Below are positions 9,637-36,771 of a DNA stretch of 64,000 nt, one piece after another. Source of the DNA: an uncultured Pseudomonadales bacterium (GTDB taxonomy: Bacteria; Patescibacteriota; Microgenomatia; UBA1400; PJMF01); contig CAZVBO010000002.1 of assembly GCA_964625685.1 (NCBI GenBank), positions 55,440-119,439 on the forward strand, written 5' to 3'. The notes beneath the pieces were generated by a model, which made no database searches, had not been told where the DNA came from, and worked only from the letters and a program-made list of their open reading frames with translations. How positions within the stretch are numbered: the first letter of the stretch is position 1; each line of letters opens with the position of its first letter. A program made the position numbers and the translations under genes.

Positions 9637-10200
9637 ATGTCAAAAATTGCGCTTTTCGGTGGAGCGTTTGATCCGCCACATTTAGGTCACCAGGCTGTAA
9701 CAGCAGCTTTACTGGAAAAACAACTGGTAGATGAGGTCTGGTATGTACCAGTATTTCAGCATCCTTGGGCAGATAAATTGGGTAAACACCACATTTCAGA
9801 TTATCAGCAACGGGTCGAAATGCTGGAACTGATCACACAAAAAGGCAGCAGAGTTGCTCATTTTAAAGATGTCAGCTTTACCTATCCGACACTGCTTTAT
9901 TTTTCCCAAAAATACCCCGAATATAAATTTTGGTGGGTGATGGGTTCCGAATATTTGTCAAAGTTTAATCTCTTTTTGGAAGGTCACCCCAAACTAGTAG
10001 ACTTTCCATTTTTTATTTATCCTCGAGCAGGGTTTCCGATGAAACCTCTCTATGAAAATATGATCCCGGTTGAAGGAGTACAAGAAGTAACGATTGCTTC
10101 CACTCAAATTCGAGAAGCAGTCAAACAAGGGAATTCCATTTATGGTTTAGTAGACCCTCAGGTCAAAGCCTATCTTGACTCACATCAACTCTACTTATAG
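9637..10200 (+). CDS. nadD: Nicotinate-nucleotide adenylyltransferase
   Basis: IALFGGAFDPPHLGH (HxGH nucleotidyltransferase motif) and an ISSTxxR-like IASTQIREAV motif. Confidence 0.85.
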   Translation: MSKIALFGGAFDPPHLGHQAVTAALLEKQLVDEVWYVPVFQHPWADKLGKHHISDYQQRVEMLELITQKGSRVAHFKDVSFTYPTLLYFSQKYPEYKFWWVMGSEYLSKFNLFLEGHPKLVDFPFFIYPRAGFPMKPLYENMIPVEGVQEVTIASTQIREAVKQGNSIYGLVDPQVKAYLDSHQLYL

Positions 10201-11775: not shown

Positions 11776-12231
11776 TTACTTTTTATTCTTCCCAATTTTA
11801 ACGCGAGTGGGTTCAAAATCAGGGGCATCAATATCAGGCACGATAAACTGAGCGTGGAGATGGGCCACCGTCCCTGCAGAATAGTCAGTATCACCAAACC
11901 GCATTGCAAATCCACCACCGGGTACATGAAAATGTTTTTCCGCCCAAGCCAAAAATTCGATTAGTTCTTTTCCTGCTTCAGGATTCAGCTCTGTCAGTTT
12001 AGTGGCGTGTTCTTTGTAAATAGCTAATAAATGAAGTTTAGTATGATCATACGGCCACTGATTGTAAGTTAGAATCCAATACTGGCCATCTTTGAGAATC
12101 TCTTGCTTATGATATTTCCAGAGATTCTCTAGACAAAAAGGACAGTGTTCTGCCTGAGCAATATTTTTCATGACCTGTTTTTGATCACCTTTACGGGAAT
12201 TATCAACATCGATAAATTGATTTTTATTCAT
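11776..12231 (-). CDS. HIT-superfamily nucleotide hydrolase/transferase (GalT-branch-like)
   Basis: A CPFC zinc-type motif plus histidine triad variant VAHLHAQFIVP (HxHxQ). The ATG at 12231, 5 nt after the thyA stop, is preferred over the GTG at 12261. Confidence 0.6.
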   Translation of the reverse strand: MNKNQFIDVDNSRKGDQKQVMKNIAQAEHCPFCLENLWKYHKQEILKDGQYWILTYNQWPYDHTKLHLLAIYKEHATKLTELNPEAGKELIEFLAWAEKHFHVPGGGFAMRFGDTDYSAGTVAHLHAQFIVPDIDAPDFEPTRVKIGKNKK

Positions 12232-12236
12232 AGGGT

Positions 12237-13109
12237 TTAGACTGCGACCGGAATATCCCACATACCAGGGTGAGGATTGTAGTCATAGACCTCAAAATCA
12301 TCTGGTCGGTAAGAGAATAGATCTTTCTTCTTATTAACAATTTTCATTTTTGGCAGTGGCCGAGTTTCCCGACTCAGTAATTCTTTGACTTTATCCAACT
12401 GATCCACATAAATATGAGCATCAGAAAAGCTGTGGATATATTCACCGACTTCATAACCCGTAACTTCTGCTAATGCCAAAGTTAGAGCGGAGTATTGAGC
12501 CAAGTTGGCCGGCAATCCGATAGGAATATCACAGGATCGCTGAAACATGTGTAAATAGAGTTTATTATTCAAAATTCGGATATTAATCCAACCATGACAA
12601 GGACAAACCACTACTTTTTGGGTTCTCCCTTTAATTCTCACATTATATTGAGGGATCCATGGTGAAATAAAGTGAGTTTTCAAAAAAGGGCGCTCTTTAA
12701 TTTGTTGCACAATAGCCTCAAATTGGTTAAAAGTTTCACCTTCGGCGGTAGGAAAGTCGTGGAAGGCTGCTCCATAAGAACCAGGTCCTAAATCTCCTGT
12801 CTCCAAGCCACGTTTTTTACATTTTTTTTCAGTAACCCATGATTTCCACCAAGTGCAGCCAAAAGTTTCGAGTTCAGCTTGAGTTCGAGCTCCATTGATA
12901 AAGCCAAACAGTTCTCCGATGGCTCCTTTCCACATTTTTTCACTAATTTTTCGCTCAGTAATCACTGGGACTTCTTTTGACAGATCAAAACGTAAAGTCA
13001 TGGGGGAGAGTAAAGTGATGGTATCTACTTCCATTTGAGATTCACTGCGGATGCCTTGTTCCATGACTAATTTGAGAAGTTGTTGGTATTGGGAGAGTGG
13101 TTGTGACAT
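12237..13109 (-). CDS. thyA: Thymidylate synthase (ThyA type)
   Basis: Catalytic Cys region VVVCPCHGW and FQRSCDIPIGLPANLAQYSALTLALA, corresponding to the conserved QRSxDxxLGxPFNIAxY block. Confidence 0.9.
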   Translation of the reverse strand: MSQPLSQYQQLLKLVMEQGIRSESQMEVDTITLLSPMTLRFDLSKEVPVITERKISEKMWKGAIGELFGFINGARTQAELETFGCTWWKSWVTEKKCKKRGLETGDLGPGSYGAAFHDFPTAEGETFNQFEAIVQQIKERPFLKTHFISPWIPQYNVRIKGRTQKVVVCPCHGWINIRILNNKLYLHMFQRSCDIPIGLPANLAQYSALTLALAEVTGYEVGEYIHSFSDAHIYVDQLDKVKELLSRETRPLPKMKIVNKKKDLFSYRPDDFEVYDYNPHPGMWDIPVAV

Positions 13110-24588: not shown

Positions 24589-25661
24589 AAGTGCCATTTT
24601 ATGATCCCACTCTTTCTTATGAAGATAATTTAGAGCAAGGACCTTTTGGTGAGTTTGCTGAAGTTGGGATGATTGAGAGACATGACTACAATCCTACTTA
24701 TTCATTTTTGGGTTCAAAAGTATATACCCCTTTCGGAATTCCAGCTGGACCATTAATTAATGCTAATTTTGTAAGTGCGGCTTTTAAAAAGGGCTTTGAC
24801 ATCTGTGTCTATAAAACTGTTCGTAGTCGGGCCTTACCATGTCATCCTCAGCCGAATGTATTAGCAGTTCAGGTTGAGGGTGATTTAACTTTAGAAAAAG
24901 CACAAGGGGAATTGATTGCCACTTCAGATTACACAGAACCGCTGTCTATTACGAACTCTTTTGGAGTTCCATCTTTGGAACCAGAACAATGGCAACCAGA
25001 TATGAAAAAAGCGGTTGAAGCAGCTGGTGAAGGGCAAGTCATGGTAGGAAGTTTTCAAGGTACTAAATCTGAATCAGGGAATCCAGAAGATTTAGTCACT
25101 GATTATGTTTTGGCAGCCCAACTGGTCAAAGAAACCGGAGCGAAAATTCTTGAAGCTAATTTAAGTTGCCCTAATGAAGGGACAGCCGACTTGTTGTGTT
25201 TTGATGTAGACAGAGTAGAGGTCATTGCTCGTAAAATTAAAGAAGAAATTGGGAATACGCCTTTGCTGATGAAGTTTGCCTATTTTGAGTCAAATGAGCA
25301 GTTAGAAAAGTTGGTGAAGCATCTTGGGCCAATTATCGATGGATTTTCGGCCATTAACACCATTCCGGCTGCTATTGTCAATAGAGAAGGAGATCAAGCA
25401 CTTCCAGGTGAAGGCAGACTCCGAAGTGGAGTGTGCGGATCCAGTATCCAATGGGCTGGTTTAGATATGGTAAAACGACTCAATCGATTGAGGAGTCACC
25501 ACGAAATGAAGTTTACTATTGTCGGTGTGGGTGGAGTGATGTCAGTCGATGCTTACAAAGCATATCGGCAGGCAGGAGCCGACGCCGTGATGAGTGCTAC
25601 GGGAGCGATGTGGCACCCAGATTTAGGAAGGAAAATCTTTGAAGATGAACACCGGCGATAA
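24585..25661 (+). CDS. pyrD: Dihydroorotate dehydrogenase family flavoenzyme (class 1-like)
   Basis: FGIPAGPL, LEANLSCPN (catalytic Cys motif of class 1 DHOD/DPD) and VGVGGV near the C-terminus. ATGA overlap with the upstream gene. Confidence 0.7.
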   Translation: MKVPFYDPTLSYEDNLEQGPFGEFAEVGMIERHDYNPTYSFLGSKVYTPFGIPAGPLINANFVSAAFKKGFDICVYKTVRSRALPCHPQPNVLAVQVEGDLTLEKAQGELIATSDYTEPLSITNSFGVPSLEPEQWQPDMKKAVEAAGEGQVMVGSFQGTKSESGNPEDLVTDYVLAAQLVKETGAKILEANLSCPNEGTADLLCFDVDRVEVIARKIKEEIGNTPLLMKFAYFESNEQLEKLVKHLGPIIDGFSAINTIPAAIVNREGDQALPGEGRLRSGVCGSSIQWAGLDMVKRLNRLRSHHEMKFTIVGVGGVMSVDAYKAYRQAGADAVMSATGAMWHPDLGRKIFEDEHRR

Positions 25662-26283
25662 CCAAGTCCATGTAATTGACCATCCTTTTGTTCAGGATTC
25701 ATTAACACATTTGCGCAATAAAGACACAAAGTTGCAAAAATTTCGGCATCACTCCGATAAAATTTGTCAACTATTATTTGCTGAAGCCATTCGAGGTTCA
25801 GAGTTTAGTGAAATTGAGATTGAGACTCCCTTAACGACCATGAAATCTCCCAAGTTGGCTGATGAAATTATTGTGGTTCCGGTACTGCGTGCAGGTTTAG
25901 CCATGCTCTTTGGAGCCATACACTTGTTGCCGAAGTCCAAAGTAGGGTTCATTGGCTTACAGCGAGATGAAAATACGGCCATAGCGAGTGAATACTACTG
26001 TAAATTTCCCCCCATCCAAGAAAACAGTGTAGTGATTGTGACTGATCCGATGTTGGCCACTGGGGGATCATCTATTCATTTATTACGTAAAGTCAGTCAA
26101 CAGCACCCCAAAGAAATGCGGTTAGTTTGTGTTTTGGCCGCTCCTGAAGGAATTGAAGCCGTTCACCAAGAATTTCCTGATGTTCAAATTTTTACCGCTG
26201 CCATTGATCAAAAGTTGAATGCCCAAAAATATATAGTCCCAGGACTTGGCGACTATGGTGATCGCTACTTTGGAACAGAATAA
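25639..26283 (+). CDS. upp: Uracil phosphoribosyltransferase
   Basis: VIDHPFVQDSLTHLRNKDT, VPVLRAGL, the PRPP loop VIVTDPMLATGGS and the C-terminal YIVPGLGDYGDRYFGT. Confidence 0.88.
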   Translation: MKMNTGDNQVHVIDHPFVQDSLTHLRNKDTKLQKFRHHSDKICQLLFAEAIRGSEFSEIEIETPLTTMKSPKLADEIIVVPVLRAGLAMLFGAIHLLPKSKVGFIGLQRDENTAIASEYYCKFPPIQENSVVIVTDPMLATGGSSIHLLRKVSQQHPKEMRLVCVLAAPEGIEAVHQEFPDVQIFTAAIDQKLNAQKYIVPGLGDYGDRYFGTE

Positions 26284-26305: not shown

Positions 26306-26950
26306 ATGAAAAATTACCAACAGTCAGTAGCTAAGGCGTTACTTGATATTCAAGCAGTCCGATTTACTCCTCAAGAACCTGTTCGATTTAAATCAGGTTT
26401 GTTGTCACCAATTTATTTAGATAATCGCATTTTCCCTTTTTATCCAGTGGCATGGAGAAGAGTTTTAGCTGGATTCAAACAGATGATTGAATCAGAAAAA
26501 ATCCAATTTGATTTGATTGCTGGAGTGGAGTCAGCTGGTATTCCTCACAGCGCTGCACTAGGCTTTTCTTTAAAAAAACCTTCTGTTTTTGTTCGTAAAG
26601 CTCTGAAGGAACATGGAACTAAAAAAAGGGTTGAAGGAGGAAATGTTAAAGGAAAACAAGTTGTTTTGATTGAAGATCATATTACTACTGGCAGTAGTAG
26701 TCTAGCCGGTGTAGATGCTTTACGTACGGAAGGTGCAAAAGTTAAACATTGTTTAGCCATTACCAGTTACGAATTTGAAGTTGCGGATACTTTGTTTTCT
26801 AAATCAAAAGTGAAGCTTCATACCCTTACTAATTTTTCAATTATTTTAAATGAAGCTTTAAAACGAAAACTCTTTTCACTAGAAGAAAAGAGGATGATTG
26901 AAGATTGGTTTAAAGATAGTAACAAATGGGAAAAAAAGTATTTTGGATAA
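26306..26950 (+). CDS. pyrE: Orotate phosphoribosyltransferase
   Basis: FKSGLLSPIYLDNR and the PRPP loop VVLIEDHITTGSS. Confidence 0.85.
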   Translation: MKNYQQSVAKALLDIQAVRFTPQEPVRFKSGLLSPIYLDNRIFPFYPVAWRRVLAGFKQMIESEKIQFDLIAGVESAGIPHSAALGFSLKKPSVFVRKALKEHGTKKRVEGGNVKGKQVVLIEDHITTGSSSLAGVDALRTEGAKVKHCLAITSYEFEVADTLFSKSKVKLHTLTNFSIILNEALKRKLFSLEEKRMIEDWFKDSNKWEKKYFG

Positions 26951-26956
26951 ATCCTT

Positions 26957-27769
26957 ATGACTACTTTTCAACAAAAACTTGATCAAATTCAAACACAGTC
27001 AAATTCTTTGGTCTGTGTTGGCCTCGACAGTGACATCGCTAAATTACCATCGCGATTTCTAAAAGCAGAACATCCTCAATTTGAGTTTAATAAATGGATT
27101 ATTGATCAAACTCATGACTTAGTCTGTGCTTATAAACCGAATTCAGCTTTTTATGAAGCCCGAGGAGCAGCCGGATTGATCGAGTTGGAGATGACGCTTG
27201 AGTATTTGCACCACAACTATTCCGAAGTTATTACGATTGATGATGCTAAGCGGGCAGATATTGGGAATACCAACAATGGGTATGTTCAGGCTATTTTTGA
27301 CCAACTGGGTTTTGATGCCGTTACGCTACATCCCTACTTAGGTCAGGAAGCGCTGCAACCATTTTTAGATCGAGCGGATAAAGGGTGTATTATCTTGTGT
27401 CGAACCAGCAATCCTGGAGCAGGGGAGTTCCAGGATTTAGCAGTGGGAAAAACCAAAAAACCACTCTGGCAGACTATAGCCGAACAGGTGAACCAGACGT
27501 GGAATCAGCACCAAAACTGTTTGCTCGTTGTTGGCGCTACTTATCCACAAGAAATGAAGGTAATTCGTCAACTGGTGGGAGAAATGACATTTTTAGTCCC
27601 AGGAATTGGAGCTCAGGGAGGCGATATTGAGGCTGTGCTGGCTGTTGGCTTAAATTCGCAAAAGAGGGGGCTGATTATTAATTCCGCTCGGGCCATTATC
27701 TTTGCGGATGATCCCCGTCAAGAAACGCAAAAACTTCGCGATGAGATTAATAACTTCCGGAAAGTGTAA
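26957..27769 (+). CDS. pyrF: Orotidine-5'-phosphate decarboxylase (long type)
   Basis: LVCVGLD, DAKRADIGNT and PGIGAQGGD motifs. Confidence 0.85.
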   Translation: MTTFQQKLDQIQTQSNSLVCVGLDSDIAKLPSRFLKAEHPQFEFNKWIIDQTHDLVCAYKPNSAFYEARGAAGLIELEMTLEYLHHNYSEVITIDDAKRADIGNTNNGYVQAIFDQLGFDAVTLHPYLGQEALQPFLDRADKGCIILCRTSNPGAGEFQDLAVGKTKKPLWQTIAEQVNQTWNQHQNCLLVVGATYPQEMKVIRQLVGEMTFLVPGIGAQGGDIEAVLAVGLNSQKRGLIINSARAIIFADDPRQETQKLRDEINNFRKV

Positions 27770-27910
27770 CTTTTTTCTTACTGTATCCATACTTTTCTGT
27801 TAAATACATACTAAATACATCAAAATATATCCTATATTTTTGGGGGTTGTCATATTTTTATTGATATAGTTTAATACCTATTAATCAAAAGTGAAGATTT
27901 TGAGGCGATG

Positions 27911-28090
27911 ACATCCAGATGTTTTCGCTCCCAAGCAACTGAATCTTGTACTGATCCTAGTACAGGAGAAAAACCAAGCGAGCTGAAACAGAGTGGATGT
28001 TTTTTTTTATAAAATTATGAAAAAGTGTAAGCAAAGTATCAATAATAAGAAAAAGGTTTAACTAAACCCCCGTTCGCTGCGGGGGTTTTT
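27911..28090 (+). repeat. Copy A of a ~175-bp structured intergenic element
   Basis: Near-identical to 30754..30926 from gttttcgctcccaagcaactgaa through gcgggggttttt, with a few substitutions and short indels. It contains a long-range stem (acatcca/tggatgt), an inner hairpin (27945-27966), a T9 run, an A/T-rich spacer and a GC hairpin. Confidence 0.85.
28064..28090 (+). terminator. GC-rich hairpin + T5 (terminator/attenuator) 16 nt upstream of the 28106 ATG
   Basis: aaa-cccccg-ttcgctg-cggggg-ttttt. It sits inside repeat copy A, immediately before RBS GAGGGAG and the start codon. Confidence 0.7.
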
Positions 28091-28105
28091 GATAGAGGGA
28101 GAAAA

Positions 28106-28894
28106 ATGGTTACTCAGGAATACGAAATATTTTTATTAAGAGTACTCAAAGATTCATTGCATTTCACGGAATTACAACGGCTTTTAGAGTTACATCAGAA
28201 TAACTTGGAGCATGTTATTCTTGATTTAACCCCACAGCAACTCTGGCTTGTGGTAGAGAGGTGTGATGACCCTAGCCTTTTAAAGTTATTAACTCAAATT
28301 CGATTTGCAGGATCAGCTGAGTTGATGAATGACAACCCTGAAGAGCCTTTCATTCTTTGGGAACCGATGAATCGAGCTCCCGAGCCTTGGGTAGCTTTTG
28401 CCTTAGCCAAAGCAATAAAACTAGAAATACAAACTCCTAACGATACCCATATCATAACTATCCCTTCTTCTGGTAGTTGGCTGAAACCTGGAATGAAGGA
28501 AATATTTCCTGAAAACCCATATATAGACATCCTCCGAAAGGAAGATTTGGAACCGGATCAACCCTTTTTCTATGAGTTTGATGTCCCATCACATTCCCGT
28601 AATAGGGTTCCTCGCCTTATGGCTTTGCTGACAAACCCACTTGATTTAAAAGGTAAAAAGGTATTGGTAGTAGATGATGTTCTAGCTAGAGGTGATGCTG
28701 TGAAACATGTCAGTGAGATGCTCACTTTCTTTGGAGTGGAAGTAGTCCAATTTGGGGTAGTGATGAGTAAGATAATGCAGGGTGGTTCAAATCTGTTAGG
28801 TCAATTTGGGATTGAAAGGTCTACTACTTTAATTCCAGTTCAAGCAGTATTGAAGCGAGATGACCAATCTATTGATTATACTTTTAGTGAGTAA
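28106..28894 (+). CDS. PRTase-fold protein with an N-terminal helical extension and an atypical PRPP loop (possible PyrR/PurR-like regulator)
   Basis: KKVLVVDDVLARGDAVKHVSEML is a type I PRTase PRPP-loop position, but it has RGD instead of TGGT/TGRT. The ~90-aa N-terminal helical region is not found in simple PRTases. Confidence 0.55.
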   Translation: MVTQEYEIFLLRVLKDSLHFTELQRLLELHQNNLEHVILDLTPQQLWLVVERCDDPSLLKLLTQIRFAGSAELMNDNPEEPFILWEPMNRAPEPWVAFALAKAIKLEIQTPNDTHIITIPSSGSWLKPGMKEIFPENPYIDILRKEDLEPDQPFFYEFDVPSHSRNRVPRLMALLTNPLDLKGKKVLVVDDVLARGDAVKHVSEMLTFFGVEVVQFGVVMSKIMQGGSNLLGQFGIERSTTLIPVQAVLKRDDQSIDYTFSE

Positions 28895-28899
28895 TATTT

Positions 28900-29217
28900 A
28901 TGCCATTTACACCTGATAATCCTTGTTTTGGTTGCCGACAAACTCAATTGGATGGAGAAAGAGTTGCGCCTTGCTGTTGGGATAATCAAATAATTATGGG
29001 TGTTATCAAGGCTATTCAATCTTTTCAGGGAAGACCTGGAGTAACTATTTATTCAACCTCCGATGAGATGGAAGTAAAAGTAGTTAATAATGGACCTTGT
29101 CCTCAACTCAACTTACAAACTGGAGCTTGTTTAATTCAAGGTCACAAGCCAGCTAGTTGTGAGAGTGTGGAACCTTACAATCATCGAATTTGTATTAAGA
29201 CTGATAAAAAGGAGTAA
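28900..29217 (+). CDS. Small Cys-rich protein, YkgJ/UPF0153-like (CxxCxxCC-type metal-binding domain)
   Basis: CFGC...PCC at the N-terminus plus C..GACLIQGHKPASC at the C-terminus resemble the putative Zn/Fe-chelating YkgJ family. Confidence 0.45.
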   Translation: MPFTPDNPCFGCRQTQLDGERVAPCCWDNQIIMGVIKAIQSFQGRPGVTIYSTSDEMEVKVVNNGPCPQLNLQTGACLIQGHKPASCESVEPYNHRICIKTDKKE

Positions 29218-29220
29218 AAA

Positions 29221-30732
29221 ATGATCGTCGTTATCGACTTTGGTTCTCAAACAGCCCATTTAATTGGCCGAAGACTCAGACAGTTAGGTATTGCAGTTGA
29301 GTATCTTGATCCTGCAAATGCTTTGAAACAAATAAAAAGACTTAAACCCTCTGGAATTATTTTTTCAGGTGGACCAAATAGTGTTTATGATCAAGGTGCA
29401 CCTACCACTGATTCTCAAATTTTAGAATTAAACATACCAATCTTTGGAATTTGTTATGGGTGGCAATTGATGGCTCAGATTATGGGCGGAAAAGTAGAAA
29501 ATACAGCCAAAGAATATGGACCAGAAACTTTAACGTATCAGAAGAACATATTTAATTTACCTGAAGAGAGTCCCCAAGTCTTTATGTCGCACGGAGATAC
29601 GGTAACTCAATGTCCCCAGGGTTTTGTTGTAGTTGCTTCAACGAAGAGTGTCGAAAATGCGGCAGTTATCAATAATAAAAAACAGATGATAGGAGTTCAA
29701 TTTCATCCCGAAGTGGATCACACTGAATATGGTCTAGAAGTCTTGAGGCATTTTGCAGAAAAAATGTGTGGGGAAATCACTTCTGAGATGAAGCTTGATC
29801 CCCAAAGTATTATTGAAGAAATTAAAGCAAAAGTTGGAACCAAAAAAGTTATTTGTGCTGTATCGGGTGGAGTTGATTCCACAGTGGCTGCTTCTTTGAT
29901 TGGTAAAGCGATAGGAAAGAATCTAATTCCGGTCTATGTTGAGAGTGGGTTGATGCGCCCTGAGACCAAAGAACATGTCATTAAAATCTTTACAGAGCAA
30001 ATTCATGCCAGTTTGGTAGTGGTTGAAGCCAAAGATCGGTTTATGACGGCTTTAGCTGGTAAAGCTGATCCCGAAGAAAAACGAAAAATTATTGGCAAAC
30101 TCTACGTGGATATTTTTCAAGAAGAATCAGAAAAACATGCAGGGGTAGCCTTTTTAGGTCAGGGTACAATTTACTCTGATGTAATTGAATCAAAGGGCTC
30201 GAAAGAAGCTTCTAAAATTAAATCTCACCACAATGTGGGGGGATTGCCTGATGAGGTAAAGTTTGAGCTTCTGGAGCCTGTGAGAAATTTCTACAAAGAT
30301 GAAGTTAGAGAATTGGGACGATTAATAGGTTTACCTGAAGAGCTTGTCATGCAACAACCATTTCCCGGTCCTGGATATGCGATTCGAATCCGAGGTAAAG
30401 TTACTGAAGAAAGATTGCAGAAAGAAATTATCGCTGATGGAATTGTAGTTGATGAAATTAAAAAAGCAGGTTTATACGAGCAAGTTTTCCAATGCTTTGC
30501 TATTATGACTGGTGCCTATAGTACTGCGGTCAAGGGAGATGCACGGGCTTTTGCCGAAGTAGTGGCTGTACGAGCCTACGAATCAAAAGACGTGATGACT
30601 TCTCAGTGGGCAAATATTCCTTATGAAGTTTTACAAAAGATTTCAAGTCGAATAGTCAATGAAGTCCCTGATGTATCAAGAGTAGTTTACGATATTACGA
30701 CTAAACCACCGGCCACCATGGAGTGGGAGTAA
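29221..30732 (+). CDS. guaA: GMP synthase (glutamine-hydrolysing)
   Basis: GATase triad region (GICYGWQ, FHPEV), ATP-PPase loop CAVSGGVDSTV and the C-terminal PPATMEWE. Confidence 0.95.
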   Translation: MIVVIDFGSQTAHLIGRRLRQLGIAVEYLDPANALKQIKRLKPSGIIFSGGPNSVYDQGAPTTDSQILELNIPIFGICYGWQLMAQIMGGKVENTAKEYGPETLTYQKNIFNLPEESPQVFMSHGDTVTQCPQGFVVVASTKSVENAAVINNKKQMIGVQFHPEVDHTEYGLEVLRHFAEKMCGEITSEMKLDPQSIIEEIKAKVGTKKVICAVSGGVDSTVAASLIGKAIGKNLIPVYVESGLMRPETKEHVIKIFTEQIHASLVVVEAKDRFMTALAGKADPEEKRKIIGKLYVDIFQEESEKHAGVAFLGQGTIYSDVIESKGSKEASKIKSHHNVGGLPDEVKFELLEPVRNFYKDEVRELGRLIGLPEELVMQQPFPGPGYAIRIRGKVTEERLQKEIIADGIVVDEIKKAGLYEQVFQCFAIMTGAYSTAVKGDARAFAEVVAVRAYESKDVMTSQWANIPYEVLQKISSRIVNEVPDVSRVVYDITTKPPATMEWE

Positions 30733-30753
30733 AAAGTAAATAATTTGTAGCGG

Positions 30754-30926
30754 AAACATCTCGTTTTCGCTCCCAAGCAACTGAACCCTGTACTTTAGTA
30801 CAGGCGAAAAACCAAGCGAGCTAAAACAGAGTGGATGTTTTTTTTATAAAATTATGAAAAAGTGTAAGCAAAGTATCAATAATAGAAAAAGGTTTAACTA
30901 AACCCCCGTTCGCTGCGGGGGTTTTT
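30754..30926 (+). repeat. Copy B of the ~175-bp structured intergenic element
   Basis: See copy A. The outer stem is re-formed with a different 5' arm (aaacatc/gatgttt). The inner hairpin cctgtact..agtacagg carries a change that turns a G-U pair into a G-C pair relative to copy A. Confidence 0.85.
30900..30926 (+). terminator. GC-rich hairpin + T5 (terminator/attenuator) 13 nt upstream of the 30939 ATG
   Basis: The hairpin cccccg-ttcgctg-cggggg-ttttt is identical to the one in copy A. Confidence 0.7.
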
Positions 30927-30938
30927 AGTAAAGAAAAA

Positions 30939-31607
30939 ATGACAATTGAAATTAGACAAATTTTTGATGCCCAAGAACCTACAGAAATAGAATTAGCTTC
31001 TTTTGTCAGAGCCATTTGTGAGAACTTACAAAGATGTCCAGAGGAATTTGCACACATTGTTCGTCCCGTAAATACTCAGGATGAAGCAGAAGTGAAAGCT
31101 ATCGTGGCTTTAGTTCAGAGAAACTTCGGGGAACATCCCCACTATCAGATATCAGAGACAGAGGGAAATCATCCTCTTAATCAACGAGTAATCGCAAAAT
31201 ACAAAGAAGCAAATTCACTTAAGAACTTATGTGATTCTATGAATCAACCAAATGCCTTTCCCTTTCTGCTTGAACAAGATGGAGAAGTATTAGGGTTTAT
31301 ATTATGTAAAGTAGCAAATGATCAAACGTTAAGAGTTCATCGCTTACACACTTCACTTTCTGCTCCTGATAGGGGAGTGTTAGGAGCTGGCAAAGCTCTA
31401 CTCAATATGGCAGCAATGACGGCACGTAGACTAAATATTTCTACTTTAACTTCAACCGCTTCATATCCGGCAAAAGGATACTTTGAGCACTTAGGTTGGA
31501 GAGGTGAACTAGAACAGAATGAATTTCCTTTTGATGATGGGGAAACAGTAACTTTGACTCAATTTAGATGTTTTTTTGAAATACCAATAGACTTTGAAGG
31601 ATTTTGA
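30939..31607 (+). CDS. GNAT-family N-acetyltransferase-like protein
   Basis: RGVLGAGKALLNMAAMTARRL resembles the acetyl-CoA-binding motif R/Q-x-x-G-x-G/A, and YFEHLGW lies near the C-terminus. Confidence 0.55.
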   Translation: MTIEIRQIFDAQEPTEIELASFVRAICENLQRCPEEFAHIVRPVNTQDEAEVKAIVALVQRNFGEHPHYQISETEGNHPLNQRVIAKYKEANSLKNLCDSMNQPNAFPFLLEQDGEVLGFILCKVANDQTLRVHRLHTSLSAPDRGVLGAGKALLNMAAMTARRLNISTLTSTASYPAKGYFEHLGWRGELEQNEFPFDDGETVTLTQFRCFFEIPIDFEGF

Positions 31608-31608
31608 T

Positions 31609-31971
31609 ATGTCACTCTATACTAAATCAGCCCAACTACCACCTCAGAAAAAAGATGGTATTAGAATATGCATTATGAGAAGACCAGGTGATGAGATTCA
31701 ATGGGATATTTGGATTCCTCATTTAGCACCTTCTCATCAATTACTAACTGATTATCATCAAGGAAAAGTAGATTGGGATGGGTTTTGTGTTCAATTTCAA
31801 AAGGAAGTAATTAAAGATAAAAAAGAGTATCTTCAAGTTGTTATAGATTTAGCAAAACTTCACGATATTACACTTATTTGTTGGGAAGAGACCCCGGAAC
31901 GATGTCATCGGAGACTCATTGCTGAAGAGTGTAAAAAAATAAATACTTCTTTAGAGGTTGTTATCAAGTAA
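31609..31971 (+). CDS. DUF488-family protein
   Basis: LAPSHQLL...W..F...F and the C-terminal LICWEETPERCHRRLIAEE match the conserved DUF488 C..CHR signature. The ATG at 31609 lies 1 nt after the GNAT stop. Confidence 0.6.
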   Translation: MSLYTKSAQLPPQKKDGIRICIMRRPGDEIQWDIWIPHLAPSHQLLTDYHQGKVDWDGFCVQFQKEVIKDKKEYLQVVIDLAKLHDITLICWEETPERCHRRLIAEECKKINTSLEVVIK

Positions 31972-32774
31972 TGAGGAAGATAGAATCTTTCCCAGATCGT
32001 TTGATTATTGCTACAGGAAACCATCAAAAAGCTCGAGCTTATGAGCAATATCCATTTCCTTATATTGATACTTTAGATCCTGAAACAGACTGTGGTGTTG
32101 AAGAGTCACTCTCTTCTGATCCCAAAGAGGTAGCTTGGCAGAAGTCAAATATAGTAGTAGCTACGTTATTAGATTTATGGCCTAGTCAAAATAATTTTGT
32201 TGTTACAGGGAATGATGTAGCGGCTTTTTTTTCTACAACTTTTGAAGGTTTATTTAACTCTTTTCAACGAAAAGAATTAAAAAAGCTTATGCGGTACATA
32301 AGTAAACTTACCACAGATCGGGAACGGCAAAATTTTTTAGCGAGAAAACAAGAAGAAACACTCGTTATGTATTGCAATGGACAATTCCATTTTCGATGGA
32401 TAGTGGGCTTTTCAATTCAAGTTCCCAAAACAGATTTAAATATTACAGGTGAAGTTGATATTGTTGGTGTTTTTAATCCTTTAGCAGAATCTTTAGTTAT
32501 CCAGAGTTTTCAGGATAATAGTGCACTTCATATGAGTCCAAGAGTGCCTTTAGCTTTGGTGCTTGATCTATATGCTCATAAACTTTTTCGAAGAGAAGAG
32601 GATGGTTTACAACCAATTGATAATGCTACTGTCTATTCATTAGTGGTGAATGGAGTGTTACCATACAGTTCTTTTGAAGATTTGGTACTAAACAGGGAAA
32701 TTTTGGGTAAAACAAAAAATTATATAATAAAACCAATTCATTTAAGCACTGGGGAAAAACATGACATTGCATGA
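31971..32774 (+). CDS. Hypothetical protein, possible Maf/Ham1 (ITPase-like) superfamily nucleotide pyrophosphatase
   Basis: The N-terminal LIIATGNHQKARAYE resembles the ATGNxxK start of Ham1/RdgB. The rest is not recognisable. TAATG overlap with the upstream gene. Confidence 0.35.
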   Translation: MRKIESFPDRLIIATGNHQKARAYEQYPFPYIDTLDPETDCGVEESLSSDPKEVAWQKSNIVVATLLDLWPSQNNFVVTGNDVAAFFSTTFEGLFNSFQRKELKKLMRYISKLTTDRERQNFLARKQEETLVMYCNGQFHFRWIVGFSIQVPKTDLNITGEVDIVGVFNPLAESLVIQSFQDNSALHMSPRVPLALVLDLYAHKLFRREEDGLQPIDNATVYSLVVNGVLPYSSFEDLVLNREILGKTKNYIIKPIHLSTGEKHDIA

Positions 32775-33045: not shown

Positions 33046-33663
33046 ATGGTTAATTCTGAACAAACATATCCTAATATAGTTATTATGGGAAACGTTGCCT
33101 CAGGGAAAAGTACATTGCTCGAGGAGATAAATAATGATCCCCAAATTAAAACTATTGCCGCTGATGAATTATATCAGGACAATCCTTTCTTTAAGGGAGA
33201 TAAGTTTCAAGATCCCAAACGATGGTCATTTACTAGTAACACTTGGTTTTTACTTGAAAAGTTAAAAATATTGTCTGATATTGCAAAACTGACCAAATTT
33301 TCACCCGTACTTGTTGATAGCGGCTTTGAAATGTCATATGTATATGGATACTTTTGTTTACTGATGAATTATTATTCTCAAGAAGAATTTGATCTATTTG
33401 AAAAACTTTTTTTTGAACTTAGTTCATCTATAATGAAACCAACGTATATAGTCCGATTAATGACTCCAATTCCCTTACTCTTAGAGAGAATACGTAGGAG
33501 AGGAAGACAATATGAAATTGAAGCATACTCACTTACATATTTGATGAATTTAGAAGCAGCATTGGATTATACTGAAGGAGTATTTCCACAACATACCCCG
33601 GTTATTCAACTAGATTCCACTGAGGATAACCATGTTCTTATAAAGTCGTTACTCGGTATATAG
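33046..33663 (+). CDS. Deoxynucleoside kinase
   Basis: P-loop IMGNVASGKSTLL and the dNK LID motif ERIRRRGRQYE. Confidence 0.8.
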   Translation: MVNSEQTYPNIVIMGNVASGKSTLLEEINNDPQIKTIAADELYQDNPFFKGDKFQDPKRWSFTSNTWFLLEKLKILSDIAKLTKFSPVLVDSGFEMSYVYGYFCLLMNYYSQEEFDLFEKLFFELSSSIMKPTYIVRLMTPIPLLLERIRRRGRQYEIEAYSLTYLMNLEAALDYTEGVFPQHTPVIQLDSTEDNHVLIKSLLGI

Positions 33664-33712: not shown

Positions 33713-34552
33713 ATGGCGTCACCTGAGTTAAGACTTACACTTTCTGAAAAAAGACATCTGATTGAATGTTTAGGACCAGTAGGGGATAAGTTATGGCTAA
33801 AACTTCGTTTTGATGAAACTGGGGAGGTATTAGAAGTCACAAGTTTAAATCATACCTTAAAACAAATTTGGCAGTTACTCAAGAATACAACTGAATTTGA
33901 TGGTCTTACTTTTAATCAGCTAGTTTTACCCTATATTCAACAGATTTTACAAAATCCAAGAAGTTTTACAGCTCGATTAGATAGTCCCAAAATCAAAACT
34001 TCTTCCGCTCACCAAGGGGAAACGGTGTTAGAGCATTTGGTTAAAGTATTAGAACATTTGCCGACTGATTTCTTGCGCAAATTTCCCCAAAGTGAAATGG
34101 AAGTCCCTCTCAATCGACAGATTGCTTTATTGAGATTCTTAGCCATAGTACACGATCTGGGAAAGATTATTTTCATTTGTGGTAATGGTCATAATGGAAT
34201 TGGTGTTGCTCACGCTCAAGTTTCAGTTTTACTCCTAAAAGGAGTAACAGACAAACTCTCTTTGTCTGAAGTAGAAAAAGATTTTTTATATCGAGCGGTG
34301 TGGAAACACCATTTTTTTGAAAAGTTAAACTATGGTTTGGTTAGCATTGATGAAGTGTTGGCAGAATTTCCTCATGATCTTCGTCAGTTTCTCCTCTTAG
34401 CTTTTGCTGATCCTTTAAGTATTGCTGGTTATGCCCATTTGAGCATAGGGGTGATTGATCGTATGGCAGAACATGGGTTACTTTCTCCAGATGAAGTGAG
34501 TTTCTTTTTAGCTCGATTTTATGAAGTTCAAGATAAACGAGCTGGTTTCTAA
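33713..34552 (+). CDS. HD-domain phosphohydrolase-like protein
   Basis: H...HD signature (VLEHL ... LAIVHDLGK) with downstream His/Asp residues (WKHH, FADP). Confidence 0.55.
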   Translation: MASPELRLTLSEKRHLIECLGPVGDKLWLKLRFDETGEVLEVTSLNHTLKQIWQLLKNTTEFDGLTFNQLVLPYIQQILQNPRSFTARLDSPKIKTSSAHQGETVLEHLVKVLEHLPTDFLRKFPQSEMEVPLNRQIALLRFLAIVHDLGKIIFICGNGHNGIGVAHAQVSVLLLKGVTDKLSLSEVEKDFLYRAVWKHHFFEKLNYGLVSIDEVLAEFPHDLRQFLLLAFADPLSIAGYAHLSIGVIDRMAEHGLLSPDEVSFFLARFYEVQDKRAGF

Positions 34553-34615: not shown

Positions 34616-35326
34616 ATGAGTGTTAATACGGAATTTGATATTCGATCGGTAGAACTTCTCTCGAAAAAGCAACTCCCACCTGGGTTTGAAGTCTTGTACA
34701 CCTGGGAATTTATTCAGCAAAAAATTAATGAATTGGTAGAAACCTTTTTGCGAGAATATAGCGAAGCTCTTATTCTTGAAGAGTTAAATGACGGTACCAA
34801 AAAATATAAAAAAATAGTTTTAATTCAAATTTTAGAGAGTGCTAGACTATTTGCAGCTGACCTGGAGGATAGATTAGTTGCAAAAGGTTTTGAAGTTGAG
34901 GTTAAAGGAGTCAAGATTCAAAGTTATCATGAACAAGAGCAAGGTGAACTCGAATTTGTTGATGGCGAAGAAAATATTACTAATATGGACCCACAGGTAT
35001 TATATTTAATTGTAGATGACATGCTAGACAGCGGTAAAACCATGTTAGGTATTTTAGAGAAAATTAAAGAGTTAAATAAGGAAGTTTTAAGCCTAATTGC
35101 GGTAACCCTATTAAAGAAACCAGGAGCTAAAAATAGTATTGAATATCCTTACTTATCGGCTTTTGAAATGGAGGAAAATCGTTGGATAGGTGGGTATTGG
35201 ATAAATATTGCCATGCCATTGCTTTTTGGGATTATGGATGCACGTAACTATCGCGACATTATTGCCAAAATTAAAAATTTTGAATCGTCAGAGAATATTC
35301 CCGTTGCCGAAATAGATGCTGCGTGA
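34616..35326 (+). CDS. hpt: Hypoxanthine/guanine phosphoribosyltransferase-like protein
   Basis: PRPP loop LYLIVDDMLDSGKTM (HPRT-type D-x-x-D-[ST]-G-x-T) and flanking beta-strand patterns. Longer than the canonical HPRT. Confidence 0.65.
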   Translation: MSVNTEFDIRSVELLSKKQLPPGFEVLYTWEFIQQKINELVETFLREYSEALILEELNDGTKKYKKIVLIQILESARLFAADLEDRLVAKGFEVEVKGVKIQSYHEQEQGELEFVDGEENITNMDPQVLYLIVDDMLDSGKTMLGILEKIKELNKEVLSLIAVTLLKKPGAKNSIEYPYLSAFEMEENRWIGGYWINIAMPLLFGIMDARNYRDIIAKIKNFESSENIPVAEIDAA

Positions 35327-35457: not shown

Positions 35458-36771
35458 ATGTCACCAACCATCCAACAACTTATTCAACAAGAACAGCAAC
35501 GTCAAACCGAAAAAATCGGACTCATTCCTTCAGAAAATGCAACCTCTCCAGAGGTGTCTGAGGTTTTGTCCTCGTGTCTATCAAACAAATATGCCGAAGG
35601 ATACCCGAATAAGAGGTATTATGAAGGTAATCAGATTATTGACCAAATTGAACTTGAAGCCCAGGACAGAGTAAAAAAACTGTTCAAGGTTCCCTACGTC
35701 AATGTCCAACCGTATTCTGGAAGTCCTGCTAACTGGGCGATCTATTTTGCCCTAATGAAACCTGGAGATACCCTATTGGGTCTTAAATTGGCTGAGGGAG
35801 GACACTTAACTCACGGTCATCCAGATGTAACGGCTTCAGGACGGTTTTATCATTCAGTGCAATATGGCTTAAATACAGACTCTCGGATTGATTTTGACCA
35901 AGTCCGCCAGTTGGCTCATCAACATAAACCCAAAGTGATTGTGGCCGGAAATACAGCTTATCCATTTAAACTTGATTTTGAGCAGTTTCGCCAAATTGCC
36001 GATGAAGTAGGAGCTTGGTTGGTGGCGGATATTTCCCACGTCACGGGTCTAGTTATTGGTGGAGAACACCCTTCACCCGTTCCCTATGCAGATGTGGTGA
36101 TGACCACCACCCACAAAACTTTTCGAGGCCCACGAGGAGCTATGATTTTAGTAACAGATGTGGGGATGCAAAAAGACCCAAAACTGGGAGCCAAGATGGA
36201 TTCAGCTATTATTCCGGGTACGCAGGGAGGACCACACAATGCTACCACTGCTGCGATTGCGATTGCTGCTCAAGAGGCTCTGAAACCAGAATTTACAGAG
36301 TATGCCCAACAAATTCGGCGAAATGCTGATGCCTTGGCAGAGAGTTTACAAACTGAGGGATTAACCTTAGTCGGCGGTGGCACCGAAACCCATTTGATGC
36401 TAATTGATTTGTCTCAAAAAGGGTTTGGTTTGGGGAAACAGGTAGCTTTTGCGATGGATATGGCTGGTATCTATGCCAATGCTAATACGGTACCTCACGA
36501 ACCCAGTAGTCCTTTTTTCCCATCAGGCGTTAGAGTCGGCACACCTATGGTGACAACTCGCGGCATGAAAGAGGCGGAAATGAGACAAATTGGGCGATGG
36601 ATTGCTCAAGTGGTAAATCAGGTGGCTGAATTTAGCTTACCCGAAGATAAAAAAGCTCAAAAGAAATTTTTAACCGATTTTCAGACGCAAATGAAACAAG
36701 ATCAATTTTTGTTAAACATAGCGGCAGAGGTCAAACAATTGGCCACTCAATTTCCACTGTTTCAGTGGTAG
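35458..36771 (+). CDS. glyA: Serine hydroxymethyltransferase
   Basis: LIPSENATSPEV, NKYAEGYPNKRYYEG and the PLP-lysine region TTTHKTFRGPRG. Confidence 0.95.
   Translation: MSPTIQQLIQQEQQRQTEKIGLIPSENATSPEVSEVLSSCLSNKYAEGYPNKRYYEGNQIIDQIELEAQDRVKKLFKVPYVNVQPYSGSPANWAIYFALMKPGDTLLGLKLAEGGHLTHGHPDVTASGRFYHSVQYGLNTDSRIDFDQVRQLAHQHKPKVIVAGNTAYPFKLDFEQFRQIADEVGAWLVADISHVTGLVIGGEHPSPVPYADVVMTTTHKTFRGPRGAMILVTDVGMQKDPKLGAKMDSAIIPGTQGGPHNATTAAIAIAAQEALKPEFTEYAQQIRRNADALAESLQTEGLTLVGGGTETHLMLIDLSQKGFGLGKQVAFAMDMAGIYANANTVPHEPSSPFFPSGVRVGTPMVTTRGMKEAEMRQIGRWIAQVVNQVAEFSLPEDKKAQKKFLTDFQTQMKQDQFLLNIAAEVKQLATQFPLFQW

Follow-up and report, generated by a model that had tools for sequence, protein, structure and literature searches.

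Guanine-sensing, terminator-forming riboswitches precede xpt-pbuX of Bacillus subtilis and genes of the guaA/guaB type, and the pyr operon carries three attenuators, its leader being bound by PyrR, a protein with phosphoribosyltransferase (PRTase) fold that is encoded in the same operon. In the NMT1 aptamer, a rod-like stack of helices holds the ligand pocket in a conserved internal loop. Bacteria belonging to the candidate phyla radiation (CPR)/Patescibacteria have no de novo nucleotide synthesis and live on salvaged bases; xanthine PRTase (XPRT) together with GuaA turns xanthine into GMP, a step that is supplied by IMPDH as well. Here we describe two leader elements, copy A and copy B, which bracket a cassette of a PRTase-like gene, a gene for a CxxCxxCC-like (YkgJ-like) protein and guaA in a stretch of 64 kb from contig CAZVBO010000002.1 (positions 55,440 to 119,439; hereafter the window). 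On balance, we regard it as probable that both are members of an uncatalogued leader RNA of about 100 nt from Patescibacteria (Pacebacteria-like CPR), a conditional intrinsic terminator that would serve as OFF switch for a guanine-family ligand in front of genes for the formation of GMP from salvaged bases.

No Rfam 15 family reached its gathering score anywhere in the window or in nine related loci (cmscan). Around the two copies (27770-31000), 18 weak matches at E ≤ 10 were obtained, none of them relevant; those to rimP, the Phe/Trp leader and rdlD align only with a GC hairpin and T-run in the tail of the copies. The initial annotation had seen no fit to a known riboswitch consensus, and indeed purine, ZTP, phosphoribosyl pyrophosphate (PRPP)/ykkC and preQ1 models gave no match at this threshold; the PRPP/ppGpp riboswitches of ykkC-2, NMT1/xanthine and 2'-deoxyguanosine (2'-dG)-II were likewise not among the 18. 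The purine/guanine riboswitch RF00167 and its variants (2'-dG, guanine-II, xanthine-II) were rejected, as no covariance-model match was found and the fold described below is unbranched, with no three-way junction. In the literature, the "guanine-II" class is described as belonging to the guanine riboswitch family, with another fold than the element's. The PyrR attenuator RF00515 was rejected as well, with no match and no pyrR-type protein near the element in the window. No description of the element was found in full-text searches for riboswitches and structured RNAs of CPR/Patescibacteria or for orphan motifs of purine genes.

With RF00167, represented by the B. subtilis xpt-pbuX leader, the element shares the location in the 5' leader of xanthine PRTase and GMP-synthesis genes, the output through an intrinsic terminator and the expectation that the end product turns expression off. 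However, there is no similarity in sequence or structure: RF00167 consists of a three-way junction with kissing loops and a separate terminator/antiterminator, whereas the element is a single rod-like hairpin with one internal loop, in which the terminator is formed by the basal helices themselves and the competitor strand is placed on the 5' side. The pyr attenuators (RF00515) also set a terminator against an alternative pairing, are followed directly by a gene for a PRTase-fold protein and occur in repeated copies per cluster. They use an anti-antiterminator, an antiterminator and a terminator where the element has two folds, and their PRTases are of the UPRTase/PyrR type, in contrast to the XPRT/adenine PRTase (APRT) type found here. 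The NMT1 motif (xanthine riboswitch) is a purine-related regulatory RNA too, but gave no cmscan match, has different conserved nucleotides and acts in Proteobacteria on genes for the oxidation and transport of purines. The PRPP and ppGpp riboswitches (ykkC subtype 2) are comparable in that they, like the candidate sensor described here, belong to the purine pathway and act 5' of purine genes through terminators; they show no similarity to the element, and the PRPP class works as an ON switch built on a ykkC-type fold. Judged by its sequence, the element is of a known kind, riboswitch- or attenuator-like, stands outside every catalogued family and is unusual in its layout.

Copies A (27921-28090) and B (30763-30926) align over 170 columns with 93.5% identity (E = 5e-69, blastn against the window), which bears out the near-identical pair of about 175 bp reported in the initial annotation; a repeat finder and a pairwise alignment agreed with this result. 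With each copy as query, no third copy was found in the window, the next matches having E ~0.1 or worse. An independent short-read assembly (Logan SRR13617040, locus L027) is 99.97% identical to the window over 28061-30926 and both ends of its contig lie inside the repeat; the repeat is therefore real in the population and no artefact of the window assembly. All parts named earlier (stems, half-sites, T runs, spacer and GC hairpin) were located. The outer stem is ACATCCA/TGGATGT in copy A and AAACATC/GATGTTT in copy B, the inner hairpin pairs GTACAGG with CTTGTAC in A and with CCTGTAC in B, a G-U to G-C change, CCAAGC half-sites are present in both, the T run has nine residues in A and eight in B, and the T5 of the CCCCCG/CGGGGG hairpin is separated from the ATG by 15 nt in A and 12 nt in B. 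It is the extent of the element that has to be revised: the two copies are real, but each consists of a conserved RNA of about 105 nt, confined to the 5' part, plus a young appendage of about 82 nt. The conserved core begins 5' of the near-identical block, at 27903 and 30748; the 5' arm of the outer stem and a conserved GCG-purine strand lie in the stretch in front of this block. Spacer and GC hairpin fall outside the core.

Further members were collected by pattern scans of genome and metagenome collections, from contigs encoding homologues of the downstream PRTase and by two rounds of covariance-model search (R1, R2), which together resulted in 14 distinct copies from 10 distinct Patescibacteria-like genome lineages (related loci are numbered L001 onwards). 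The R2 model scores the 14 copies at 60-103 bits, and the next match in the 225-240 kb searched has 16 bits (E ~1); with this gap, the element is no dispersed repeat. As far as sequence can tell, a check for degenerate copies at random sites found none, every copy being located 5' of nucleotide-salvage genes. Of eight distinct genomes reached via the PRTase, six have a copy within 10 kb. A strict two-sided pattern added three new genomes from the genome and metagenome collections and proved too strict; true members vary at CCAAG[C/A/T]AAC and AAGY-GAGC. Six matches of a loose pattern in viral contigs, all inside coding sequence, were rejected as chance. The relatives are labelled Candidatus Pacebacteria or Patescibacteria. 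The contig of L003 (CAZPQG010000008.1), in which the element lies 5' of IMPDH, is A+T-rich, carries the label "uncultured Pseudomonadales" and may be mis-binned; the remaining element-bearing contigs with a taxon label are all Patescibacteria. The close relatives L013 and L017 have the same promoter; in L013 the element lies between promoter and ATG (9290-9411), and in L017 (9380-9411) it is precisely missing (tcatcccTGC|aATG), a presence/absence polymorphism of a module of about 100 nt.

The fold is one long unbranched hairpin consisting of P1, P1b, P2, a conserved internal loop (CCAAG.AAC / AAACCAAGY) and a variable P3. On the 5' side the consensus reads GCGAARRC, CAYC with a few further nucleotides, GYUUU-C-GCUC and CCAAG.AAC(N)GAAY; the variable P3 hairpin is followed by RGRGRAAACCAAGY, GAGC-Y-RAAAR, a few nucleotides with GRUGY, and U6-9. 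In the 14-copy alignment (A12), 93.5% of 308 cells in P1/P1b/P2/P3 are paired, compared with 34-54% in controls with the partners shifted by 1-3 columns. Compensatory changes on both sides occur in 14 of 23 pairs, and the observed values were reached by 0-1 of 500 shuffles. The sequence of P3 is unrelated between the window and L001 (CTTGTAC/GTACAGG versus CTCACCAC/GTGGTGAG), yet P3 pairs in every copy. An independent RNAalifold run gave the same helices, with P1 lengthened by pairing of an upstream purine run with the U-tract. The facing CCAAG strands could form C-G, A.A, A.A and G-C, as read from the invariant sequence. A repeated cis-regulatory RNA, as first proposed for the pair, is supported by this recurrence of the core in relatives with compensatory changes, co-oriented and 5' of nucleotide-salvage genes, and the combination of a conserved structured 5' leader RNA with covariation is what is found in riboswitches in general.

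A run of T6-9 lies 0-2 nt past P1 in all 14 copies, and the 3' arm of P1 (GRTGY) adjoins it. Because this arm runs into the U-tract, the folded element is an intrinsic terminator with a stable stem and a U-tract. The terminator form was the minimum free energy (MFE) structure in 12 of 12 copies computed (-25 to -43 kcal/mol). A simple promoter/terminator scanner flagged neither terminator in the window, because the "loop" is the whole sensor. An upstream strand (U strand, GCGAARRC), which is transcribed first, is complementary to the M strand GYUUUCGC formed by the 5' arms of P1b and P2. In the resulting 5' hairpin (-9 to -14 kcal/mol on its own, 12 copies), one part of the 5' arm of P1 is taken up by the stem and the other by the loop, which makes the two folds mutually exclusive. 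Among 13 distinct sequences, positions 2-3 (GC) of the U strand are invariant and the next G is present in 12; 90.6% of the cells of the U:M helix are paired, against 44-50% in slid controls, and three pairs have changed on both sides. In L025, GCG to GCA in U goes together with CGC to UGC in M, where the terminator fold has a bulged base. An alternative pairing, as the initial annotation had expected, is plausible, but between GCGRWRRC (27905-27912; 30750-30757) and GTTTTCGC; the partner named at the time, TCGCT in the loop of the GC hairpin, had to be given up, as this hairpin is missing from all other loci. Support for the competing 5' hairpin is moderate, and it may provide a choice between termination and antitermination.

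Each of the 14 copies has the same orientation as the gene that follows, with the T-run ending 8-97 nt 5' of its start codon, and an association with genes of a single pathway was found for every one of the 14. With XPRT, GuaA and IMPDH encoded downstream, the shared theme of these operons is guanine-nucleotide supply. We propose that a small molecule would bind the conserved internal loop and stabilise P2/P1b/P1 over the 5' hairpin, which would lead to termination (OFF); in the ligand-free RNA the 5' hairpin would last until RNA polymerase has passed the T-run. By analogy with the guanine riboswitches on xpt/gua genes, the most likely ligand would be of the guanine family, namely guanine, xanthine, GMP/GTP or (p)ppGpp. 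Copy A would control the PRTase-like-CxxCxxCC-guaA cassette from a conserved promoter, and copy B, whose U strand begins 17 nt past the guaA stop codon, would gate entry into the operon for the GNAT, DUF488 and 267-aa proteins. More tentatively, and falling somewhat short of what we would call probable, the elements may constitute a riboswitch class confined to Patescibacteria that responds to a guanine-family metabolite or PRPP, with a rod-like aptamer, closing helices that double as terminator, an upstream competitor and a GMP-salvage regulon that includes GNAT, DUF488 and a protein family of about 270-305 aa.

Several observations weigh against the reading as a ligand-controlled terminator. 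In 12 of 12 copies, the terminator fold exceeds the forced 5'-hairpin fold in stability by 2-10 kcal/mol, so that any switching would be kinetic and co-transcriptional, and a competitor strand 5' of the sensor is an unusual design. The purine-only variation of the U strand can be explained equally well by pairing with the U-tract, and the A-U/G-C covariation of U:M splits the sequences into two groups, which may be two clades. P2 (GCUC/GAGC) and the loop strands are invariant and give no covariation signal. Pairs were counted on an alignment that had been fitted to the model, and the figures look better for it; compensations in P3 and P1 are visible in the raw sequences too. The 14 sequences include pairs from the same genome, which are not independent. 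L017 and L022 carry the PRTase-guaA genes with no element within 10 kb. Copy B and the second copy of L001 have no recognisable promoter and begin 17 nt after the guaA stop; probably, they act on guaA read-through. Finally, the reader of the conserved loop could just as well be a protein.

The last point leads to the main rival, a PyrR-type attenuator in which a protein, perhaps the downstream PRTase with XPRT fold, would read the CCAAG strands and P3 under the control of PRPP or a purine nucleotide and make the terminator fold more stable. We consider this unlikely, though not negligible. Six of the 14 copies have a PRTase of one family encoded by the first or second gene downstream, PyrR itself is a precedent for a PRTase-fold protein that binds its own leader, and two identical CCAAG strands could fit a dimeric binder, but CAAG/CAAG can also be read as internal self-pairing. 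The remaining eight copies have no PRTase as first or second gene, and the two loci with the PRTase and no element count here as well. The PRTases of about 200 aa look like ordinary enzymes, with normal similarity to solved APRT/XPRT enzymes (E = 1e-13 to 1e-11) and an intact AHGST loop. The 262-aa protein encoded after copy A is different. Its AlphaFold2 model (pLDDT 90.8) has B. subtilis xanthine PRTase (1Y0B, TM 0.83) as best fold in the PDB, but its PRPP loop VVDDVLARGDA is degenerate, with RGDA instead of the usual TGGT-type, and residues 1-55 form an extra N-terminal four-helix segment; both features are more in keeping with a regulator than with an enzyme. The 262-aa protein shares 26% identity with the PRTase of about 200 aa in L002 and 74% with its closest relative in L001, which was the sole close homologue in a word search among 5.8 billion proteins; no exact match is on record. 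From these features, the protein may be a regulator rather than an enzyme. Binding of RNA by it is possible and is not required, because the element is also found 5' of PRTases that lack the N-terminal extension. No RNA-binding surface or PyrR-like motif was identified, and the Rfam PyrR model gave no match.

The same protein could be imagined as a PurR- or GfcR-like transcription factor that binds the CCAAGC repeats as a DNA operator, with incidental RNA hairpins. B. subtilis PurR and haloarchaeal GfcR combine a DNA-binding with a PRTase domain, the 262-aa protein has weak matches to PurR in NCBIfam and the PDB, and it carries the N-terminal four-helix extension. However, no beta-wing is predicted in the N-terminal segment, and XPRT is the top fold, with PurR at rank 41. 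Outside the window and L001, the element-adjacent PRTases all have about 200 aa and no N-terminal extension. Furthermore, the element lies 3' of the promoter-like sites and not over them, and the compensation in P1/P1b/P3 as well as the obligatory T-run are features at the RNA level, all of which makes an operator very improbable. Improbable, if to a lesser degree, is a stand-alone small RNA (sRNA) gene of about 110-130 nt or an elaborate constitutive terminator, whose purine-gene neighbourhood would be inherited synteny. Synteny among the genomes is indeed strong, and with the terminator as MFE structure in 12 of 12 copies, transcripts may mostly end at the T-run as discrete sRNA. Nevertheless, the position varies (before PRTase, after guaA, before IMPDH, GNAT or unrelated unknown genes), yet it is always directly 5' of a co-oriented gene, the gap to which can be as small as 8-13 nt and leaves no room for a second promoter. 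A plain terminator would need neither an invariant loop nor a conserved competing 5' strand.

In the window, the tails of copies A and B are identical at 81 of 82 positions and the cores at 79 of 88; the lone 1-nt tail difference is gone in L027. The first copy of L001 has kept the first ~40 nt of the spacer, and a hairpin-bearing piece of 46 nt is an insertion in the window (alignment A11); in the second copy of L001 the T8 run is followed by 9 nt and the ATG, with no tail. The GC hairpin was found in none of 26 other loci, and as part of the conserved switch it was rejected. The L001 copies resemble those of the window over the 5' ~105 nt only, and each other in the conserved core only. The two copies of L021 are near-identical including their promoters and bracket PRTase-guaA. 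A tail that is more alike than the core and has no counterpart elsewhere is what recent segmental copying or gene conversion leaves behind; this points to the tail as a young addition copied between both leaders and not as a part of the sensor. Because the L001 copies share the core alone, the bracket arrangement is older than the near-identity of A and B. As far as can be told from comparing the loci, the near-identity is a case of concerted evolution within each lineage, and the bracket arrangement is old. The window and L001 have different genes 3' of copy B, suggesting that recombination took place at the element.

These data also bear on the second possibility raised in the initial annotation, a non-regulatory scar of a duplication or insertion, or a small mobile repeat, around the 2.6-kb cassette. 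For the 3' half of the repeat a copying event stands, given the lineage-specific tail; for the core, it is contradicted by covariation among genomes in which the flanking proteins have only about 25-75% identity. The near-identical L021 copies, the exact presence or absence of the element in L013 and L017 and the change of genes after copy B would fit a mobile unit, but terminal inverted repeats, target-site duplications, integrase and transposase were not found at the element, as would be sought in a miniature inverted-repeat transposable element (MITE) or a repetitive extragenic palindrome (REP). Two copies per 64 kb in the window and at most two per related locus (1-2 per 20-64 kb overall), all on the same strand as and directly 5' of related genes, together with a bracket that predates the near-identity, speak in the same direction. 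An att site inside a tRNA gene was ruled out, as a tRNA/tmRNA scan found no such genes in the window. As an explanation of the core the scar is largely refuted, and as an account of the whole we rate it lowest of all, as hardly credible; operator, sRNA and mobile repeat all fit the data poorly.

The A/T-rich spacer of each tail holds a mini open reading frame (ORF), at 28017-28064 in A (MKKCKQSINNKKKV) and, after a 1-nt indel, at 30854-30901 in B (MKKCKQSINNRKRFN). Its stop lies 2-5 nt 5' of the GC hairpin stem, and there is no Shine-Dalgarno sequence; it is probably untranslated, though the geometry would suit melting of the hairpin coupled to translation. A role as leader peptide was rejected because of the missing Shine-Dalgarno sequence and the divergence of the A and B frames after the indel.

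Almost nothing on gene regulation in CPR/Patescibacteria was found in the literature searched, and in a 2024 review (PMC11665869) riboswitches are mentioned for Patescibacteria solely as a possible future means of controlling genes. If our reading is true, the element is a rare native regulatory RNA of this group, located before xanthine-PRTase/guaA, IMPDH and associated operons, and a sensor of the purine pathway that is built differently from the classical purine aptamer. It would also point GNAT-DUF488 and the family of about 270-305 aa toward guanine-nucleotide metabolism. At 100 nt, the RNA is small enough for direct biochemistry despite the uncultured hosts.

Table 1 Features of the window and element copies in related loci (positions refer to the window unless a locus is named; R2, second-round covariance model)
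Feature	Position	Strand	Remarks
upp	25639-26283		
pyrE	26306-26950		
pyrF	26957-27769		5' of copy A
Copy A, promoter-like region	27829-27875	+	ATCCTATATT 27829-27838; TTGTCA 27847-27852; 17-nt spacer; TTTAAT 27870-27875
Copy A, conserved element	27903-28008		one or two PRTases, then guaA downstream
Copy A, U strand	27904-27912	+	GGCGATGAC; pairs with GTTTTCGCT 27921-27929 to a 5' hairpin that excludes the terminator fold
Copy A, terminator form	27911-28008	+	MFE -33.5 kcal/mol; R2 102.9 bits
Copy A, P1 5' arm	27911-27917	+	
Copy A, P1b 5' arm	27920-27925	+	
Copy A, P2 5' arm	27927-27930	+	GCTC
Copy A, 5' loop strand	27931-27944	+	CCAAGCAACTGAAT
Copy A, P3	27945-27966	+	
Copy A, 3' loop strand	27967-27979	+	AGAAAAACCAAGC
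Copy A, P2 3' arm	27980-27983	+	GAGC
Copy A, P1b 3' arm	27985-27990	+	
Copy A, P1 3' arm	27994-28000	+	
Copy A, T9	28000-28008	+	
Copy A, lineage-specific tail	28009-28090	+	A/T-rich spacer, mini-ORF, GC hairpin, T5
Copy A, GC hairpin	28067-28072 / 28080-28085	+	CCCCCG/CGGGGG; T5 28086-28090; -17.3 kcal/mol
PRTase-like protein, 262 aa	28106-28894	+	first gene after copy A; Pfam Pribosyltran E = 1.5e-8
CxxCxxCC-like (YkgJ-like) protein, 105 aa	28900-29217	+	PF03692 E = 0.002, below Pfam cut-off
guaA, glutamine-hydrolysing GMP synthase	29221-30732	+	last cassette gene; NF000848 E = 1.4e-197
Copy B, conserved element	30748-30846		GNAT-DUF488-267 aa downstream
Copy B, U strand	30749-30757	+	AGCGGAAAC; pairs with GTTTTCGCT 30763-30771; 5' hairpin in RNAfold centroid
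Copy B, terminator form	30754-30845	+	R2 98.9 bits; -24.8 kcal/mol, constrained and unconstrained alike
Copy B, P1 5' arm	30754-30760	+	
Copy B, P2 5' arm	30769-30772	+	GCTC
Copy B, P3	30787-30804	+	
Copy B, 3' loop strand	30805-30817	+	CGAAAAACCAAGC
Copy B, P2 3' arm	30818-30821	+	GAGC
Copy B, P1b 3' arm	30823-30827	+	
Copy B, P1 3' arm	30834-30840	+	
Copy B, T8	30838-30845	+	
Copy B, lineage-specific tail	30846-30926	+	spacer; CCCCCG 30903-30908 / CGGGGG 30916-30921; T5 30922-30926
GNAT acetyltransferase	30939-31607	+	Pfam; first gene after copy B
DUF488	31594-31971	+	Pfam
267-aa protein	31971-32774	+	no Pfam match
Deoxynucleoside kinase	33046-33663		
HD-like protein	33713-34552		
Second PRTase	34616-35326		
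SHMT	35458-36771		
L001 copy A	9844-9948		one or two PRTases, then guaA
L001 copy B	12635-12761		other unknown proteins leading to SHMT
L002	4140-4247		PRTase, then 275-aa protein
L003	5614-5724	-	IMPDH family
L011	3261-3368	-	other unknown proteins leading to SHMT
L013	9304-9400		one or two PRTases, then guaA
L016	12486-12580		long operon including PRTase, PNP and IMPDH
L020	9870-9990		one or two PRTases, then guaA
L021 copy A	9883-9983		one or two PRTases, then guaA
L021 copy B	12206-12309		other unknown proteins leading to SHMT
L023	13208-13298		GNAT-DUF488-305 aa
L025	12695-12797		304-aa member of the same unknown family as the 267/305-aa proteins

The gene cluster of the window (Table 1) combines nucleotide salvage with one-carbon metabolism and is transcribed mostly from a single strand, in a genome of 39% G+C. 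A 102-aa protein of L001, matched by size and position alone, likewise lies between the PRTase-like gene and guaA. In L023/L024 the element is found 5' of GNAT-DUF488-305 aa, and the DUF488 protein is 52% identical to that of the window. Proteins of the family of about 270-305 aa, with no Pfam match, are encoded 3' of the element in four genomes (window 31971-32774, L023 14426-15343, L025 12837-13751, L002 4917-5744). Those of L023 and L025 have 47% identity to each other; with both of them the window protein shares 23-25% identity, and with that of L002 about 20% (E = 8e-5). We regard this family as a candidate new player in guanine-nucleotide metabolism. The proteins of L001 (294 aa), L011 (262 aa), L021 (251 aa) and L016 (534 aa) showed no family and no mutual similarity in Pfam, NCBIfam and BLAST searches.

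Most copies have a promoter-like site 20-35 nt upstream, as judged by consensus match. The promoter-like region of copy A is nearly identical in L001 over about 65 nt (alignment A11), and its layout, A(T/C)CCTA(T/A)(A/T)A / TTGACA-like / 17 nt / (TAG)TTTAAT, is shared by both copies of L021 (9820-9865 and 12133-12185), L023 (13133-13180) and L025 (12630-12675), in which the TTGACA-like hexamer, 17 nt and TAGTTTAAT follow each other; the promoter-like site of L016 is TGGTATAAT. Within the spacer, which is not conserved in other genomes, the best promoter-like matches lie on the minus strand (TTGATA-17-CATAAT). In L001, the conserved promoter and the first copy are separated by a MITE-like insertion of about 165 nt (9661-9827) with the inverted ends TAGACTTGTAGCTAAATAAG ... 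TTATTTAGCTACAAGTCTA; it has no counterpart in the window. The motif A(T/C)CCTA(T/A)(A/T)A, located about 10 nt 5' of the -35 hexamer, could be an upstream promoter (UP) element, a second -10 or the site of a regulon-wide regulator.

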